From assembly GCA_965369655.1 (NCBI GenBank), contig CBDUQR010000009.1, positions 1 to 64,000 of the forward strand: a stretch of 64,000 bases of DNA, written 5' to 3'. Shown piece after piece: positions 1 through 7,193 of the stretch (its first letter is position 1; every line of letters starts with the position of its first letter). The notes beneath the pieces are model-generated. The model saw nothing but the letters and a program-made list of their open reading frames with translations. It searched no databases and was not told where the DNA came from. The translations under genes and the position numbers were made by a program. Origin of the DNA: an uncultured bacterium. Lineage in GTDB: Bacteria; Zixibacteria; MSB-5A5; JAABVY01; JAHJOQ01.

Positions 1-54
1 CCGTACGCCCGGTGGTGTGACAGGGAAAGCTTGCGAGAGCCTACCTATGTCGAT
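1..54 (+). mobile_element. 3' end (distal domain V and domain VI) of a group II intron, class IIC-like; the rest lies upstream of the window
   Basis: CCGTACGCCCGGTGGTGTGACAGGGAAAGC-TTGCGAGAGC-CTACCTATGTCGAT matches the bacterial class C intron end pattern (..CGTACGnnCGGTGGTGTGnnAGG..CCTAynnyGAT), finishing in AT. Confidence 0.8.
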
Positions 55-229
55 TGAAGCAGCCAGCCGCCGATTGTTGTTGACTTGCACGATACCCGGT
101 CATAATCTTGACAACGCAAAAGGGCTTGTTGAAATAGCCCATGTCGGGCACTTGTCGGTGATGTTGTCATCGCGAGGAGTGGAGCGACTTGGTGAACTAA
201 CTCGTCACCTCGCATAAGGCATCGCGTTC

Positions 230-404
230 GTCACCCCTCCCTCGGGGATCGGGATCGGCGACCGATGCGGAGGCCCTTCGCTTCCACTCAGGATACACAG
301 GGGTCCAGACAAATCTTTCAAGTCTGTTACACTTACGCATTCTGAATCTGGTTCTGGATTCCCGTGATATCCTGAGCACAGCGAAGGGCCTTCGCGGGAA
401 TGAC
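230..404. repeat. REP-like hairpin doublet interrupted by 27/28-bp and 24-bp micro-modules
   Basis: Removing 238-265 and 275-298 restores GTCACCCCTGCGGAGGCAGGGGTCCA. Removing 364-387 restores TGGATTCCCGCCTTCGCGGGAATGAC. Both are perfect hairpins. Confidence 0.8.
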
Positions 405-432
405 GAGGACTGGTAACTGGCCGGTATGTACT

Positions 433-655
433 GTGGGCGGCAGACGTCTTGAGGCTGTCCCATAAGTAGGTCGTGTTCCGAACCTGATGTAATCAGGTGA
501 GAAACGCGACACCTCTATCTTGTTGACTGACAGTCGGGTTTCTTGCAGGCTACGCCTGCTGCGGAACGCCGACCTACAGGAGAACAGAATTTTTGAGGCA
601 GCCTCTCTTCGTCTGCCCCATCCAGCGTTGACATCGGTGGACATCTGCCGGGCAC
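433..655. repeat. REP-like doublet (GTGGGCGGCAGACGTCyTCGTCTGCCCC family) split by a MITE
   Basis: Reverse complement of the intact copies at 24736-24814 and 38992-39066. Confidence 0.75.
451..605. mobile_element. MITE (155 bp) with GAGGCTGTC-type terminal inverted repeats and a TCTT target duplication
   Basis: Left end GAGGCTGTCCCATAAG, right end TTTTGAGGCAGCCTC, TCTT at 447-450 and 606-609; internal GTAG..CTAC REP doublet at 466-577. Confidence 0.8.
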
Positions 656-677
656 GGAATACCATAACAGGAGTAAT

Positions 678-1322
678 ATGAAGAAAGCTTATATTCTTTT
701 CATTGGCCTGCTGATTCTGATTGTCCTTGCGTTCACATACGCTAAGAGCTACCTGTCGAGGCTCGAATCAGACGACCTGCGAATCAAGACCGAGCTTGGT
801 CGCAGGCAGCTCATCGACAGCCTTCAGCAGACATTTGAGATGATGGCCATCGATCGCACGGGTGATATTCAGCACAGATACGACAGTCTGGTACGTGAGA
901 GCGATGCGCTGATATATGCTTTGGAATCGCAACTCGATCTGTATCTGAATCCTGAATATGATCCGGTGGCTTCGGTCGCTGATCCCGATCCTGAGGGACA
1001 GGAGGATGAACCCAACTCGGTTCGAGCAGATAGCAATGTAGTACTTGCGCCGGACACGTCCAAGTCGCTGACAGTGGATTCGGCAGCATCGATCAAAGAT
1101 GCGTGGGAGAGCGAGATCACTCCCCGAGAGTACGAAGTGTACCTTGCATATCTCGAACGTGTTGTCAGCCTGCCGAAGGATATGACCTCGTATGAAAAGA
1201 AGGTGGCGTATGACGAGGCCGAGAGGAATCTCGCCGCTGAATACTCAGTGACCAAAGACGACATCAGGAAAATCCTGAAGAAGCTGCGAAAGAACAGTAT
1301 CAGGGGACGAAGCAAGAACTGA
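678..1322 (+). CDS. Hypothetical protein with an N-terminal membrane anchor
   Basis: 214-aa ORF, CAGGAG RBS, hydrophobic N-terminus; contains the in-frame 27-bp module at 972-998. Confidence 0.75.
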   Translation: MKKAYILFIGLLILIVLAFTYAKSYLSRLESDDLRIKTELGRRQLIDSLQQTFEMMAIDRTGDIQHRYDSLVRESDALIYALESQLDLYLNPEYDPVASVADPDPEGQEDEPNSVRADSNVVLAPDTSKSLTVDSAASIKDAWESEITPREYEVYLAYLERVVSLPKDMTSYEKKVAYDEAERNLAAEYSVTKDDIRKILKKLRKNSIRGRSKN

Positions 1323-1471
1323 GGCGGAGCGTCGTCTTGTGTGGTGTCAGGGTTGCATTCAATCCTGCTCAGATCAAGCTGATAAGCGCAGTGCGTTATG
1401 CCAGCGCGACGTCGATTAGATGCTGTCGTCATGACTCTGGAGCTTGGGTCATGCGTGCAACGGCGATCTTG

Positions 1472-1660
1472 CTAAGTCGACTGCCGCGAGGAACTCTTGT
1501 GATTCTCGCCGCGGTCGTACGGGATAACAATGTGTTCATCACGAAGAATCTTGTTCACCGTTGTGATGAACTCACGCGGCGGCAGGCTTTGGAGGCGGAA
1601 TGGTATCCAACCCTTCTTGCCGAACCACTCTGACAACGATAACTCGCGTTTGGGAGACAT
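1472..1660 (-). CDS. Small hypothetical protein (62 aa), paralog of 2271-2444
   Basis: AAGGAG RBS 8 nt before the ATG at 1660; core KKGWIPFRLQSLPPREFITTVNKIL. Confidence 0.7.
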   Translation of the reverse strand: MSPKRELSLSEWFGKKGWIPFRLQSLPPREFITTVNKILRDEHIVIPYDRGENHKSSSRQST

Positions 1661-1838
1661 GATGCAATCTCCTTCGAGAGAAATTCCGATCTCCCAGATG
1701 CGGCAGCATTCGCAGATATGTTTTATTCGCAGTACCATCTGTTAGTAAACGATTCATCCTGCTCTTGTCAAGGATTTTGCATGACGGTATTGACTCCGGA
1801 ATCCGAATGCGTTATCCATCATCAGAGGATAACTGACA

Positions 1839-2159
1839 ATGAGCAAAAAGAGTGAACATAAGTTCGCCGAAGTTCAGCTTGAGAAATTGCTTCTCGAAAA
1901 CCTGCCGCAGGAGATGTCCGCATATAGCAGCAGTGCGGACACGGATGACTCGACCGGGAGAGCGTCCGAGAAGTTCAAATCAAGACTGCGTTGGCATATA
2001 TCGCGTTCGCTTTCTCCAAGGCAAAGGGAAGTTCTGACCCTTCTGCTCAAAGGAAAGACCGAAAGGCAAATAGGGGTGATTCTCGGAATCACTCAGCAGG
2101 TCGTTCATATCTATAAGTGGCGTGCAATTCGCAAGTTACAGGAGAAGTTGCTCCGGTGA
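1839..2159 (+). CDS. Stand-alone sigma70 region 4 / LuxR-type HTH protein
   Basis: LSPRQREVLTLLLKGKTERQIGVILGITQQVVHIYKWRAIRKL; GAGG RBS. Confidence 0.8.
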   Translation: MSKKSEHKFAEVQLEKLLLENLPQEMSAYSSSADTDDSTGRASEKFKSRLRWHISRSLSPRQREVLTLLLKGKTERQIGVILGITQQVVHIYKWRAIRKLQEKLLR

Positions 2160-2270
2160 GGTGTATGTCAAACGGCTAATAATGGAAAAGGTTGTTGTAA
2201 CCAGCATGAGACAACACCTCCCTCCCCTTGTCCCTCACCGCCGAAAGACAACTTGGTAAGGAGGTGGGTC

Positions 2271-2444
2271 GTGTTTGGTGTTCGTAAAGACCTTGACTAT
2301 ACAAATGTGACAGATAAGAAGATCTGGCACCCTTTTTCTCTTCAATCGCTCGCCACGAAGGATTTCATCCAGATAGTGAACAAGATTCTTGCCGGAAGGC
2401 ATGGTCTACTGACCTATCGTGACAGGGGCGTCAGGATCATGTAG
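2271..2444 (+). CDS. Small hypothetical protein (57 aa), paralog of 1472-1660
   Basis: AAGGAGGTG RBS before the GTG at 2271; core KKIWHPFSLQSLATKDFIQIVNKIL. Confidence 0.7.
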   Translation: MFGVRKDLDYTNVTDKKIWHPFSLQSLATKDFIQIVNKILAGRHGLLTYRDRGVRIM

Positions 2445-2534
2445 TGTGCGTGATTCGCCGCCGGTTTCTTTAGCTGGTGATATTCGCGATCTACAATGAA
2501 TCTGGCTCATTGGGTGTTGTTCGGCAGTATGTGA

Positions 2535-2733
2535 GAGGTTGTCCCATAAGTGCCAATGAACTTGAGCGGGAAGCTGACTCTGTCGCTCCCGCGGAGGCCC
2601 TTCGCTTTGCTCAGGATATCACGGGAGCCTATTTAACGATAACGCATTCAATAGATTCCCGCCTGCGCGGGAATGACATCGCTTTCTTTCGCAAGCATGA
2701 CCACCAACCTATCAGACCTTATGGGACAGCCTC
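2535..2733. mobile_element. MITE (199 bp), same family as 451-605, with a GTGA target duplication
   Basis: TIRs GAGGTTGTCCCATAAG / CTTATGGGACAGCCTC (15 of 16 complementary); GTGA at 2531-2534 and 2734-2737; internal REP doublet carrying a 24-bp module. Confidence 0.85.
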
Positions 2734-2834
2734 GTGAGTGGCGCAGTTCAATATAGGGCGATACCTGCCGAATACGTATGTAGGACCTGCGGTGCGGCAC
2801 AGTTCCTGAACAGTGTTGTAACTCTAAGTTTGAG

Positions 2835-2862
2835 TTGACATTTAAGCAATGTTGGGTATATT
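2835..2862 (+). promoter_or_regulatory. Putative sigma70 promoter
   Basis: TTGACA-N16-TATATT upstream of the 2913 ORF. Confidence 0.5.
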
Positions 2863-2912
2863 AATATCTGAGTCTTGCTTGAGTAGATGTAAGTATTCAC
2901 ATTGGTGCAATC

Positions 2913-4622
2913 GTGATTGATCACGCCCTCAATGAATCTGGCAAATGCCGCGTGGCATGTTTGCTTTGTGTCATTCTGGTTATTGGTCTCCCAGTACACG
3001 CATTGGAGATGGACCAGCCGAGCCTGATCCATGATGCGTATGCGGACGGCAGGCTCGACCGGGAAGGGCATTACCGCTGTCTGATGCAGTCGATTCTCGA
3101 TCCGGAGAACTTACCAGTCGAGTTCGCAACTGATGTTCCGCACAAGTGTGGCACTCATGTTCTGCTTGAGATCGAATCGAATCTTGGTACACTCTCGACC
3201 GAGATGCAGGAGTTGTTTGCAACCCTTGATGTTCGTCCTGAAGCCGAGTGCGAGTATGTATCACCCGACTCATTCTTCAAGCTCCACTATGACACCGCGT
3301 CCGGACAGGCGACGCCGCCTGTGCCGATCGAGGATCTCGATTCGAGCGGGATTCCTGATTTTATCGAGAATATGGCACTCTATGCCGATTCGGCATGGAG
3401 ACAGATCGTGCAGAACTTTGGACATCACAGGCCACCGTCCGACGGCACTCTCGGCGGCGACAGTTTGTACGACATCTACTTCAAGCAGTTCCAGTACTAC
3501 GGTATTACAAATGGAGACAACGAGGGACCGGAGCCGTGGGATGACTACTCATCGCACATAGTTCTTCACAATTCATTTGATATATTTCCACCAAACCAGG
3601 ACCCCGAGGGGAACCAGAAGGGATCGATGAAGGTCGCTATCGCCCATGAGCTATACCATGCCGTACAGTTCTACTATGACGCGTTTATCGATACATGGTG
3701 GATGGAGCAGACCGCTGTCTGGATGGAAGACGAGGTCTACCCGGGGATTCATGATAACTATAACTACTTCGATGATTTCTGGCCGTCACCCGAGATGTCG
3801 CTCTTTGAGGAAGATATTATCAGGCACATGTATGGTTCGTTCGTCTGGCCCAGGCACCTCACTGAAGTCCACGGCGATCTCCTGATCAAGGAGATACTCG
3901 AAGGCATGGCTACGCCGACATCCTCACTGATGAATGTCATTGTAGATGTGTTTGACCTGTACGGGACGACGTTCGATGACGAATTCAGGAGATTTCTGTT
4001 CTGGAATTACATGACCGGCAGTCGAGACGACGGGCATCACTATGTCGATGCCGCAGATTATCCCGAGATCGCGATTGAGCACAGTTATGACAGTCTGCCT
4101 GCGTTGCAGATATCAAGTTTTTCAGCCCCGTACAATCGTGGTTCAAACTACATCGAAGTCTACAACGACTCATCATATATTGGCATTCTCGCGTTTGGCA
4201 TTGATACGGCATACTCGGCTCCCTGGTCGCTGTCGTATATCACAGTAGATACGGCGGGTGTGTATGACTTCTTGTTCAGGAACCTGAGCGGCGGTGGAGA
4301 GGGCAAGACCTACGTCGGACCGTTCCAGGAATACGACAAAGTTGTGTTCATTCCGCACGCTAAAGGTCTGTCGATGAACGGGCCGTATGGATTCGTGTAC
4401 AGCGTCTACTTCAGACCCATCGGCGATGCCGACGCATCTGAGAATATCGACATCGATGATGTCATCTGGATTATCAACTATATCTTCAGCGGCGGACCGC
4501 CTTCGGAACCGTATGTAGCAATGGATGCCGACTGTTCCGGCAATGTCGACATCGATGACGTCGTTTATCTCATATCATATATATTCTCGGCGGGTCCTCA
4601 GCCGTGCGGCGAAGGATTCTGA
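2913..4622 (+). CDS. Secreted zinc metalloprotease (MXAN_6640-like) with C-terminal dockerin repeats
   Basis: Signal peptide, FKLHYD..VP.EDLDSSGIPD, HELYH zinc motif, two EF-hand-like repeats (GDADASENIDIDD / DADCSGNVDIDD). Confidence 0.8.
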   Translation: MIDHALNESGKCRVACLLCVILVIGLPVHALEMDQPSLIHDAYADGRLDREGHYRCLMQSILDPENLPVEFATDVPHKCGTHVLLEIESNLGTLSTEMQELFATLDVRPEAECEYVSPDSFFKLHYDTASGQATPPVPIEDLDSSGIPDFIENMALYADSAWRQIVQNFGHHRPPSDGTLGGDSLYDIYFKQFQYYGITNGDNEGPEPWDDYSSHIVLHNSFDIFPPNQDPEGNQKGSMKVAIAHELYHAVQFYYDAFIDTWWMEQTAVWMEDEVYPGIHDNYNYFDDFWPSPEMSLFEEDIIRHMYGSFVWPRHLTEVHGDLLIKEILEGMATPTSSLMNVIVDVFDLYGTTFDDEFRRFLFWNYMTGSRDDGHHYVDAADYPEIAIEHSYDSLPALQISSFSAPYNRGSNYIEVYNDSSYIGILAFGIDTAYSAPWSLSYITVDTAGVYDFLFRNLSGGGEGKTYVGPFQEYDKVVFIPHAKGLSMNGPYGFVYSVYFRPIGDADASENIDIDDVIWIINYIFSGGPPSEPYVAMDADCSGNVDIDDVVYLISYIFSAGPQPCGEGF

Positions 4623-4673
4623 TCGGAGTTTTCGTCTCAGCAGCCATGCCACCGGAGTTTAGCATAACGCAGT

Positions 4674-5254
4674 GTGGCAATCGGAATAGTGTCTGTCATC
4701 CTGCTCCTCTCGACCATCAGCATGTCTTCAGCAAGTGAACTGAACTCTCTGGATCTGATCGAGTTGGCGTATGAGAGCGGTCGAATTTCAGAGGGTGAGC
4801 GGATCGTCTATCGCCGATGACAGTCCGCGATCTCGACACCCTGCCAGCGCAATACCGCAGCGATACATCTCTGATCGGAAAGTGTGCAACCGAGATATTC
4901 CTTGATGCCGCGGAGAACTTCGAATTGCTTACGCTTGAGCAACAGCGTGTGGCGAAGGACTACATGGCTCGACCATCGCGGGCATACTCACACGATTCCC
5001 CCGACGGGCATTTCAAAATCCACTACGATGAAACCGGCACACACGCCGTGCCGTCGGCAGACGACAACGGCAACGGCGTCCCGGATTTCGTAGAATGGCT
5101 CGCGGATTATGCGGATTCGTCGTGGAGATGTATCCATGATAATCTCAGCTACGATCTGCCGCCCGTGGATGGCGGCGCTGGAGGCGATGACAAGTACGAC
5201 ATAAAAGTACCGTTGGATCGAGATGCCGGGTTGCTCCGGCCTCTTTTTTGTTGA
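4674..5254 (+). pseudogene. Frameshifted and truncated paralog of the 2913-4622 metalloprotease
   Basis: Frame 1 VAIGIVSVILLL..LIELAYESGRISEGERIVYRR* shifts near 4815 to MTVRDLDTLP..HFKIHYDETGTHAVPSADDNGNGVPDF; homology ends at KYDI, before any HEXXH. Confidence 0.75.
5225..5250 (+). terminator. Rho-independent terminator-like hairpin
   Basis: GCCGGG-TTGC-TCCGGC followed by CTCTTTTTTG. Confidence 0.55.
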
Positions 5255-5477
5255 CTGAAGTCTTTGTCGTATTATCAATTACGGCAGGATGGGACCATAG
5301 AAGTTGTCCCATATAGAGAGTTTCGCTGGGTCTTGTCGACGACTGGGTCGGCAGTGTGGCTTGGCGATCACTTTCTAACTGTTGCCTGACACGGATTCCA
5401 TTAGCCGGCAGTTCACACGCCTGCCTTCCGCAGCGCATGAACCGCCGGAACGGATAATTACGGCAGGATGGAACCCT

Positions 5478-7193
5478 ATGACTGACGAACATATCGGCAA
5501 GTACAAGATACTTGAGAAGCGTGGCGAAGGTGGCTTCGGAGTCCTCTACAAGGCTCTCGATGCCATGATTGACCGCGTCGTGGCCCTGAAGGTCCTTCAT
5601 CCCGAATACGCGGCAAGCGAGAGACTGGCGAATTGGTTCAAGCGTGAGGCACGGGCAATGGCGCGTTTGAACCACCCGAACATTGTCACTATCCACAATT
5701 TCGAGGTCGAGGATGACCGGCACTTCATTGTGATGGAGTACGTCGATGGCGTCGACCTCGATTCGGTCATCAAGACTCGTGGCAAGCTCCCGATCGATGA
5801 GATACTCGGGCTGATGTCCCAAATGCTGAGCGCCTTCGGTTACGCACACTCCAGCGGTATCGTCCACAGAGATATCAAACCGTCGAACATCATGATAGAC
5901 ACGTCTGGGCGGGTCAAGATTACCGATTTCGGGATCGCGAAGATACTTGACGACTCGAAAATGACCAAGACAGGCATGGGAGCGGGGAGCCTGCACTACA
6001 TGTCCCCTGAGCAGGTCGAGGGCAAGCTCATCGACACGCGCACCGACATCTACTCGCTCGGAATCACGCTGTATCAGATGATTACCGGCAATGTGCCGTT
6101 CACGGATGATTCGGACTATATCGTCATGCGTGCTCACCTCGATCAGACGCCGGATAAGCCGTCGGATCTCAGGCAGGATGTGCCGCCCGATCTCGAACGC
6201 GTCGTTATGAAAATGCTCGAGAAGAAACCGGAAGATCGTTACGAGAGCATGAGCGCTGTCGCGGATGATCTTGGAGAGCTGGGGGGAAAAGAATTCGTGG
6301 CCTCCGCAGCTGTGAGCGGGAGCCCCGCGGACATTAGGACAAGAACTGTCTCGACTCCCAAGCCTCGCTATACGCCTCCTGATCGTCGTGAATCGAGCGA
6401 TGGAGAGAAAAGCGCTGGGTGGAGACGATTCCTGATTCCGGCCGGCGCAGCGGCAGCGCTGATAGTCACCACAGTCGTGGTGTTACTGTTTGTGTTTGGA
6501 GGGGATTCAACCGAAACAGATGAACCGGTTGTGTCGGATACGACGAGTGTCGCAGTTGTCGACACGATTGAGGTGTTAGCTGAGTCGGACAAACCGTCGG
6601 ACACTGCGATGGTTGCCGTTACCGAACAAGAGCCGATCGATACGGCGGAGGCTCTCACCTCCGTGGACCAGTCATCCGACTCGATTCCGACGACGTCCGA
6701 CATTATCACTCCTTCCGAAGAGGACTTGCCCGGCGGCAGGCTCCTTGTGGAGATAGCTCCGTTTGATTATCGCAATCCGCCCAGGGTTGTGCTCGACGGC
6801 AGGGAATTCAGCGTTGACGACATTCCGTTGGAGATCACCGGTATCAAGACGGGCTGGCATCAACTCTCGGTTCACTTTGCCGGGGAGAGCTTTTTCGAGA
6901 GCGTGTACGTCGACCGTGATATAAAGACGAAGACGTACCGTTTTAACGGACCGGTGGGCAGAGTCTCGATCGGCGCAGAGTTTATCGGTATGCAGCAGAG
7001 GCAGCCATGGGCGAAGATAATTGTCGACGAGAAGCCGATTGAACAGGGCACTCCAACAGCTATTGAGCTTGTCGAGGGGCCGCACAAGATCATGGTGAAG
7101 AAGAAAGATTTCGTGACTGTTGGGAAAGCGAAGTTCATCTACGTTAAAGCAGGCGAGAATACAGTCGTGAATTTCAAGCTGAGAAGGAAGTAA
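5478..7193 (+). CDS. Hanks-type Ser/Thr protein kinase with a TM helix and extracytoplasmic PEGA-like domain(s)
   Basis: GEGGFG, VALK, HRDIKPSN, DFG and YMSPE motifs; TM segment LIPAGAAAALIVTTVVVLLFVF; PEGA-like C-terminus. Confidence 0.9.
   Translation: MTDEHIGKYKILEKRGEGGFGVLYKALDAMIDRVVALKVLHPEYAASERLANWFKREARAMARLNHPNIVTIHNFEVEDDRHFIVMEYVDGVDLDSVIKTRGKLPIDEILGLMSQMLSAFGYAHSSGIVHRDIKPSNIMIDTSGRVKITDFGIAKILDDSKMTKTGMGAGSLHYMSPEQVEGKLIDTRTDIYSLGITLYQMITGNVPFTDDSDYIVMRAHLDQTPDKPSDLRQDVPPDLERVVMKMLEKKPEDRYESMSAVADDLGELGGKEFVASAAVSGSPADIRTRTVSTPKPRYTPPDRRESSDGEKSAGWRRFLIPAGAAAALIVTTVVVLLFVFGGDSTETDEPVVSDTTSVAVVDTIEVLAESDKPSDTAMVAVTEQEPIDTAEALTSVDQSSDSIPTTSDIITPSEEDLPGGRLLVEIAPFDYRNPPRVVLDGREFSVDDIPLEITGIKTGWHQLSVHFAGESFFESVYVDRDIKTKTYRFNGPVGRVSIGAEFIGMQQRQPWAKIIVDEKPIEQGTPTAIELVEGPHKIMVKKKDFVTVGKAKFIYVKAGENTVVNFKLRRK

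Follow-up and report, generated by a model that had tools for sequence, protein, structure and literature searches.

A Zixibacteria-wide microprotein family linked to a putative sigma-region-4-like regulator gene

Some sigma factors are divided between two polypeptides. In Bacillus subtilis SigO–RsoA and Tn916 Sig7–Sig8, a region-4-only protein stands beside a small protein that escapes recognition as a sigma factor in ordinary searches, and the genes are conserved together (PMC7826278; 10.64898/2026.10.01.756105); T4 gp55–gp33 is a phage case. Here we describe a locus of comparable outline from an uncultured member of the Zixibacteria, located near the start of contig CBDUQR010000009.1 of assembly GCA_965369655.1. 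The stretch analysed, hereafter the window, is the first 64 kb of this contig (contig C9) in a genome of 2.99 Mb that is assembled in 100 contigs and is 99.5% complete. An earlier note on this DNA had pointed to two paralogous microproteins, designated A and B here, that bracket a stand-alone helix–turn–helix (HTH) gene, and had proposed the trio as a candidate regulatory module. We find that A and B are genuine genes of an undescribed microprotein family that extends across the Zixibacteria, that B is the constant downstream neighbour of the HTH gene in an operon usually headed by a third gene, X, and that A is confined to the order to which the window belongs.

Other described systems also resemble parts of this locus. 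Domains of the GerE/NarL type have four helices, of which the extra C-terminal one follows the recognition helix and serves dimerization; we know of no GerE-type protein with a fixed microprotein partner. In response regulators, the part other than the receiver is normally an effector, most often one that binds DNA. Small winged-helix binders (of the excisionase or MerR N-terminal kind) and ribbon-helix-helix binders (Arc/CopG) are comparable in size to A and B, and are considered below alongside the model of B.

A family of microproteins throughout the phylum

Microprotein A (1472..1660, minus strand) has 62 aa and an ATG start, and microprotein B (2271..2444, plus strand) has 57 aa and a GTG start, at a position where the B orthologues have ATG. 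The coordinates, strands and lengths of both open reading frames (ORFs) agree with those first given, as does the motif that had drawn attention to them, which is identical at 16 of 25 residues by hand count on the translations; the claim of ribosome-binding sites is likewise borne out by Shine–Dalgarno-like purine runs 4–8 nt before both start codons. In a BLASTP comparison, A and B have 22 identities over 49 positions (45%; E = 8e-13). This likeness is not due to chance, because a profile of the four paralogues found in the window's genome (A and B, together with a 46-aa copy encoded on contig C5 and a 58-aa one on contig C47) recovers 152 proteins of 25–109 aa and, when searched exhaustively, 250 clusters at 50% identity; among the 150 clusters listed, all but 3 are shorter than 105 aa.

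Within the phylum, the family is encoded in 280 of 285 genomes, in all 198 high-quality genomes and in all 130 genera, with 1–6 matches per genome, so that the A/B motif is conserved as an ORF far beyond the window; the five genomes without a match are 52–88% complete. All of the genomes compared are uncultured assemblies. The organism labels of the 152 proteins name the Zixibacteria or the GN15 division, with one exception labelled Deferrimicrobium, and ten divergent representatives that were looked up carry Zixibacteria names only; the range beyond the phylum is read from these few named matches. Every named protein among the 152 is annotated as hypothetical. That the peptides belong to no described family, as had been supposed, is upheld: A and B have no Pfam match at E up to 1 beyond chance rows and none in NCBIfam or PHROGs, and the family profile matches no PDB sequence at E up to 10. 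Literature on Zixibacteria sigma factors, consulted as titles and the openings of abstracts, yielded nothing on this topic, the motif itself not having been searched for.

Members of the family are about 46–65 aa long and combine a basic, disordered N-terminal tail with a compact core of about 30 residues in the order strand–helix–helix–strand. Their signature is roughly WHxYxLQxL-x4-F-x3-VNKIL-xG, and over 122 diverse members the Trp, Leu-Gln, Leu, Phe and Ile-Leu positions are invariant or nearly so.

B is the fixed neighbour of the HTH gene

The gene that lies between A and B (1839..2159, plus strand) encodes a protein of 106 aa and is, as originally described, divergent from A and co-oriented with B. 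The protein is matched in 159 of the 285 genomes, once in each with a single exception, and the positive genomes fall in families f1–f3 and f7–f10, plus one weak match in f14; in the other 126 genomes there is no match at E 1e-5. Among the 150 matches listed, identity is 42–76% over nearly the full length.

To define the neighbourhood, 50 HTH loci from 50 of the 159 HTH-positive genomes were scored with purpose-built hidden Markov models; this is a sample, made up of the 30 best-scoring loci and 20 lower-scoring loci chosen by hand to cover f2, f9, f10 and the weak f7 matches. A co-oriented family member of the B type follows the HTH gene in all 50 loci, and a 12-nt box, with no more than two mismatches, occurs a few bases past the HTH stop codon in 49. 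A homologue of gene X (678..1322, plus strand, 214 aa) lies directly upstream on the same strand in 37 loci; the 13 in which X went undetected comprise six f2 loci, six f3 loci and one locus at a contig end, and the profile, built mostly from f1 and f7 sequences, may miss divergent forms. A divergent upstream member of the A type is present in 12 loci, which are exactly the 12 genomes of the window's order (6 of 6 in f1 and 6 of 6 in f2), compared with none of the 38 elsewhere. The gap between X and the HTH gene is 508–695 nt in f1, because A occupies it, and 3–53 nt, mostly 14–16 nt, outside f1.

These counts identify X–HTH–B as the widespread unit and the bracketing A/B pair as an elaboration at the level of the order. 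The proposed three-gene module therefore survives in part: a linked gene unit is conserved, and a peptide of this family is indeed linked to the HTH gene, but the trio A–HTH–B is not the basic arrangement. As the window opens contig C9, we considered whether the locus might be an artefact of a contig start; this was rejected, since the identical gene order recurs within long contigs of other genomes.

The product of gene X, the first gene of the operon, begins with a hydrophobic anchor, continues through a coiled-coil-like middle part and ends in a conserved domain of about 60 aa; its homologues are typically about 200 aa long, and no Pfam family matches it above the cut-off. Some 60–120 nt upstream of X lies a conserved TTGAC element resembling a −35 site, which in at least 10 of the 18 loci checked (L045, L048–L052, L054, L063, L068 and L069) is overlapped by a perfect palindrome of 13 nt, a candidate operator for the HTH protein or for a microprotein. 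The divergent intergenic region between A and the HTH gene (1661..1838) is the presumed site of both promoters; a consensus scan for promoters and terminators found no strong sigma-70-type site there and gave nothing above shuffled sequences.

A conserved box and leader precede B

The box, GTGTATGTCAAA, occupies 2161..2172 (plus strand), just 3′ of the HTH stop codon, and is near-invariant. The 2.99-Mb genome contains only two exact copies, where uniform base composition would predict 0.36. The box is a candidate promoter or operator element, or may mark the 5′ end of the B leader.

The spacer in which the box lies (2160..2270, plus strand) varies from 75 to 121 nt in f1 and from 150 to 234 nt elsewhere. 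In the window it contains a pyrimidine-rich stretch (2215–2221), a conserved motif at 2232–2243 and the Shine–Dalgarno sequence of B (2260–2266), to which the pyrimidine stretch is complementary. Complementary pairs at the same place differ between lineages, and in single-sequence folds the Shine–Dalgarno sequence pairs with an upstream stretch in most lineages. In a duplex test, 8 of 27 distinct leaders, many of them from close relatives, beat 95% of their shuffles, and RNAalifold returned no consensus structure for a MAFFT alignment of 13 leaders. A leader fold that sequesters the Shine–Dalgarno sequence is therefore offered as a lead rather than a finding. Rfam assigned no family within window positions 1–6000, where it gave one sub-threshold chance match.

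The HTH protein resembles sigma region 4

The best Pfam match of the 106-aa protein is GerE (E = 1e-10; 41.3 bits against a cut-off of 23.5), spanning profile positions 2–46 of 57, and Sigma70_r4_2 and Sigma70_r4 also lie above their cut-offs, in agreement with the regulator type first assigned to it; there is no region 2 match. NCBIfam aligns the protein to the C-terminal 65–100 positions of several sigma models, with the sigma70-ECF model (ECF, extracytoplasmic function) covered at positions 100–165 of 165 only and below its cut-off. It also matches PHROG sigma factor families and, by hhalign, ECF region 4 (E = 6e-5). In the AlphaFold2 (AF2) model, a conserved but low-confidence N-terminal helix (residues 3–20) and a disordered, variable linker lead to helices at 38–56, 60–70, 75–82 and 86–105.

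Two relationships are thus in play. GerE/LuxR stand-alone regulators (PF00196) provide the best Pfam match, and the PDB sequence matches are of that type (EvgA, EsrB, RhlR, SdiA and GerE); in the model, however, the chain ends right after the recognition helix (86–105 of 106 residues), a long helix precedes the HTH in the manner of regions 4.1 and 4.2, and the top rows of a Foldseek search are region 4 domains of sigma factors (SigB, SigD, BldN and SigH), mixed with FixJ/LuxR types and all with E of at least 0.019. On the basis of the domain matches, the helix layout and the Foldseek rows, we assign the protein, as modelled, to a sigma region 3.2/4-like type without region 2.

Such a protein invites comparison with the split sigma factors, and the earlier note had listed a split sigma-like system among its proposals. 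The 106-aa protein would then act as region 4, recognizing the −35 element and binding the flap, and the microprotein would supply a region-2-like function at the −10 element or the β′ clamp helices, with A as an alternative second subunit. The sigma 3.2/4 layout that lacks region 2, the small partner gene adjacent in 50 of 50 loci and the precedent of region-4 proteins paired with small proteins not recognized as sigma factors all accord with this scheme. The small protein itself does not: it has no Sigma70_r2 match at E up to 1, and when the family profile is compared by hhalign with the ECF sigma alignment of the genome, the probability is 0.13% (E = 0.44). With about 30 residues, its structured core falls well short of a sigma-2 domain in size, RsoA and Sig8 themselves being nearer 76–79 aa. 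Moreover, a leader of 75–234 nt separates the small gene from the HTH gene, no sigma-4-only gene neighbours most members of the family, and in one form the domain is joined to a receiver. We accordingly regard a split sigma factor of this kind as rather improbable. Complex prediction from the HTH and B alignments scored 0.02 against a mark of 0.32 and weighs neither for nor against binding.

The predicted core of B

An AF2 model of B built from 122 sequences has a mean predicted local distance difference test (pLDDT) score of 77, with 30 residues at 90 or above. Confidence is concentrated in residues 17–47 (pLDDT mostly >90), which form in order a short strand, a helix (21–25), a second helix (29–40) and a short strand; residues 1–16 form a low-confidence tail (pLDDT <50 for residues 1–7) that is basic in most orthologues. 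Small winged-helix and ribbon-helix-helix binders share with B a length of 45–65 aa, a basic N-terminal arm, a strand with two helices and a Gly after the second helix. They differ in that no sequence or fold match connects them to B, whose first helix has only 5 residues, and in that ribbon-helix-helix proteins pair their N-terminal strand across a dimer, whereas the B monomer model pairs its strand within the chain. Fold searches with the model gave a best Foldseek E of 2.0 against the PDB and no Z of 2 or more in a wide VIA-align search, results that carry little weight at such a size.

Paralogues away from the HTH gene

The 46-aa type of the family is universal and very highly conserved. 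It heads an operon in which an M23 peptidase gene follows in all 21 loci, and in 16 of the 21 it is preceded by an ECF sigma gene in divergent orientation. In 23 of 25 loci, a GG-N10-GC motif of the sigma-54 −24/−12 type (0.03 expected per region) sits 100–183 nt upstream of the conserved core of the 46-aa protein, and the window's genome encodes sigma-54. The same motif was found in none of 29 B spacers, in none of 18 regions upstream of X and nowhere in window positions 1–3000.

Across the 25 loci, made up of the 46-aa locus of contig C5 (L008:1300-1470) and 24 related ones, a conserved leader follows the motif, and the two sides of a stem in it change together between lineages. Divergent from the 46-aa/M23 operon on this contig (L070:1-9000) is a cluster encoding an ECF sigma factor, a DUF4097 protein, a bactofilin-domain protein and a LiaF-like protein, next to which are a group 2/3 sigma gene and a gene for an HtrA-type protease; the whole has the look of a cell-envelope stress island.

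The 58-aa type is convergent to uvrA (contig C47, L071:7898-8104) and occurs as a tandem duplicate in one relative of the same family (L074:1129-1665). Five other genomes hold further copies, whose neighbours include genes for Fur-family regulators (in two genomes, L087 and L089), histidyl-tRNA synthetase and TonB-type receptors, among others. At L086:1480-2028, the family domain continues in frame into a receiver domain, giving a response regulator of about 176 aa, which in the one locus inspected is followed by a PAS-domain protein. A search with the family alignment for longer homologues found none; the fused forms surfaced only when the fused protein served as the query, its N-terminal part then recovering 12 clusters of 168–204 aa (P0281-P0292) in which PF00072 is the sole Pfam domain, two of them with Zixibacteria labels. 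These clusters recall response regulators with small non-canonical output domains, in that they join the family domain directly to a receiver domain; here, however, the output domain is N-terminal and unclassified, and A and B are free-standing.

Judged by these gene arrangements, the family domain appears to work alone, to work without the HTH protein and to be able to form the non-receiver half of a response regulator. The idea that the peptides are dedicated partners of the HTH protein must accordingly be given up, as the family is far wider than the module, extending to the 126 genomes without an HTH match and to copies in other contexts.

The same paralogues raise the prospect that these are small RNA-binding proteins, which would autoregulate their own leaders or act on the ribosome in the style of ribosomal-protein operons, with the HTH linkage reflecting co-regulation only. 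Tiny proteins with basic N-terminal tails would suit such a role, as would a universal and highly conserved 46-aa copy, and both B and the 46-aa copy are preceded by long leaders of conserved length, which seem to be structured and may sequester the ribosome-binding site. The leader structure is nevertheless weakly supported by the duplex test and the consensus fold, no Rfam family is present, and the receiver fusion suits a transcriptional output better than a ribosomal role. We hold this explanation to be improbable.

Microprotein A, a probable duplicate of B under selection

A tree of 65 rows unites the A types of f1 with those of f2 (support 93/85; recovered in 92% of bootstrap trees) and nests them with the B types, separate from the 46-aa and 58-aa types (86/75). 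With only 60 alignment columns and a long A branch, this placement is tentative. It would be consistent with an origin of A as a duplicate of B dating from the ancestor of the window's order, after which A changed fast. A lacks two residues that are conserved in the family, namely the His that follows the Trp and the Gly beyond the second helix.

A is nevertheless under purifying selection, as are B and the HTH gene: the proportion of nonsynonymous differences (pN) is far below that of synonymous differences (pS) for all three genes in all 15 pairwise comparisons among six f1 genomes. Against a genome of the same genus, pN and pS are 0.144 and 0.728 for A, 0.147 and 0.558 for B, and 0.132 and 0.524 for the HTH gene; for most pairs no ratio is quoted because synonymous sites are saturated.

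Loss of family-invariant residues under continued selection is what might be expected of a competing variant, and it favours a second explanation, in which B and A bind the HTH protein, for example at its N-terminal helix, or RNA polymerase, as anti-factor and anti-anti-factor, without contacting nucleic acid. That helix is strongly conserved yet is modelled with low confidence on its own, as would be so for a segment that folds on a partner, and the gene linkage is strict. The invariant surface of the family, on the other hand, is retained in copies without an HTH neighbour and in genomes without an HTH match, so that any shared partner would need to be universal, and no anti-sigma domain family (zf-HC2, RskA or similar) in Pfam or NCBIfam matches A or B, or indeed X. 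We consider protein-binding modulators of this sort unlikely, while giving them serious weight.

A proposed role in transcription control

The reading that we favour, with a confidence that falls somewhat short of even, is that the family core is a minimal HTH-like output domain used in transcription control and that B acts together with the sigma-4-like protein. It is suggested by the HTH-like topology and basic arm of the core, by the receiver fusion (non-receiver parts being normally effectors), by transcription-related neighbours, and by the strict linkage of B to the HTH gene with a dedicated cis element. The transcription theme recurs in other contexts of the family, in the sigma-54-type motif, the divergent ECF sigma gene and the Fur neighbours.

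In this proposal, the core of the microprotein would bind nucleic acid, the most likely mode in which it could take part in transcription control. B would be the fixed third gene of an old operon, in which it follows the putatively membrane-anchored X and the sigma-4-like HTH gene; it would be expressed by way of its own conserved box and long leader, and would probably work with the sigma-4-like protein at the same promoter or promoters. A would have arisen from B in the ancestor of the order and have been placed divergently between X and the HTH gene. Because it has lost two family-invariant residues, we infer that A is likely to be a modulating or competing variant.

Several observations weigh against this proposal. 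The microproteins match no DNA-binding family in Pfam, NCBIfam or PHROGs; the family lacks a PDB sequence match and the B model a fold match by Foldseek or VIA-align. The first helix of the model has only 5 residues, so that the HTH label for the core is a reading of topology and not a match. A protein language-model atlas provided sub-threshold leads only, with ribbon-helix-helix families among the closest named clusters, at 0.88. The majority of family members do not adjoin this HTH gene, and the family also occurs in genomes without a match to the HTH query, which restricts any HTH partnership to the B/A branch. Finally, a spacer of 150–234 nt means that B need not be co-translated, or equimolar, with the HTH protein.

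A broader alternative, for which we see only a small likelihood, would make the family a phylum-specific accessory component of the transcription machinery, docking on RNA polymerase or on domains of the sigma region 4 type. The 46-aa copy would then serve the housekeeping enzyme, B would complete the region-4-only protein into a working, non-canonical two-subunit sigma factor whose second subunit is unrelated to region 2, and A would act as a switchable alternative to B.

Annotation routinely misses microproteins, and the presence of this family in every high-quality genome, together with the conservation of the 46-aa copy, makes a central role likely; the sigma-like neighbours, the sigma-54-type promoter motif and the receiver fusions indicate transcription control as its probable sphere. 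With its region-4-only protein, invariant 12-nt site and microprotein, the X–HTH–box/leader–B arrangement offers a concrete three-part system that could be rebuilt in a model host, and it might yield a new small DNA-binding fold or a new way to complete a truncated sigma factor. The family profile should also be of use to annotators, for a gene that gene callers often skip.

Surroundings of the locus

The X–A–HTH–B block is flanked by two copies, at 246–470 and 2535–2733, of a dispersed intergenic repeat that is about 200 bp long and contains palindromes; one pair of arms, at 360–404 and 2582–2626, is 91% complementary. As blastn queries against the genome, the two copies give 85 matches on 38 contigs and 96 on 43. 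With at least 85 matches genome-wide, the repeat is a MITE- or REP-like element that is neither part of the module nor specific to the locus.

Flanking repeats and small genes beside an HTH gene are features that a toxin–antitoxin pair, or another addiction or defence cassette on a mobile element, would also present, and a toxin/antidote system was among the functions first suggested. Such a cassette is poorly reconciled with genes that are universal, held at a single locus and vertically conserved: the family is in all 198 high-quality genomes, the HTH protein has one match per genome in all but one of 159, and the trees group by paralogue type, consistent with vertical descent. Pfam, NCBIfam and PHROGs contain no toxin or antitoxin family that matches (PADLOC was not run), and the repeat, with its at least 85 matches on 38 contigs, is not tied to the locus. 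We give this explanation almost no credence.

Downstream of the block, positions 2913–4622 encode a secreted-looking protein of 569 aa with a DUF6055 match and a weak dockerin match. It is followed at 4674–5254 by an apparent second copy of its N-terminal part, shorter or frame-broken, and then by a Ser/Thr kinase gene at 5382–7193.

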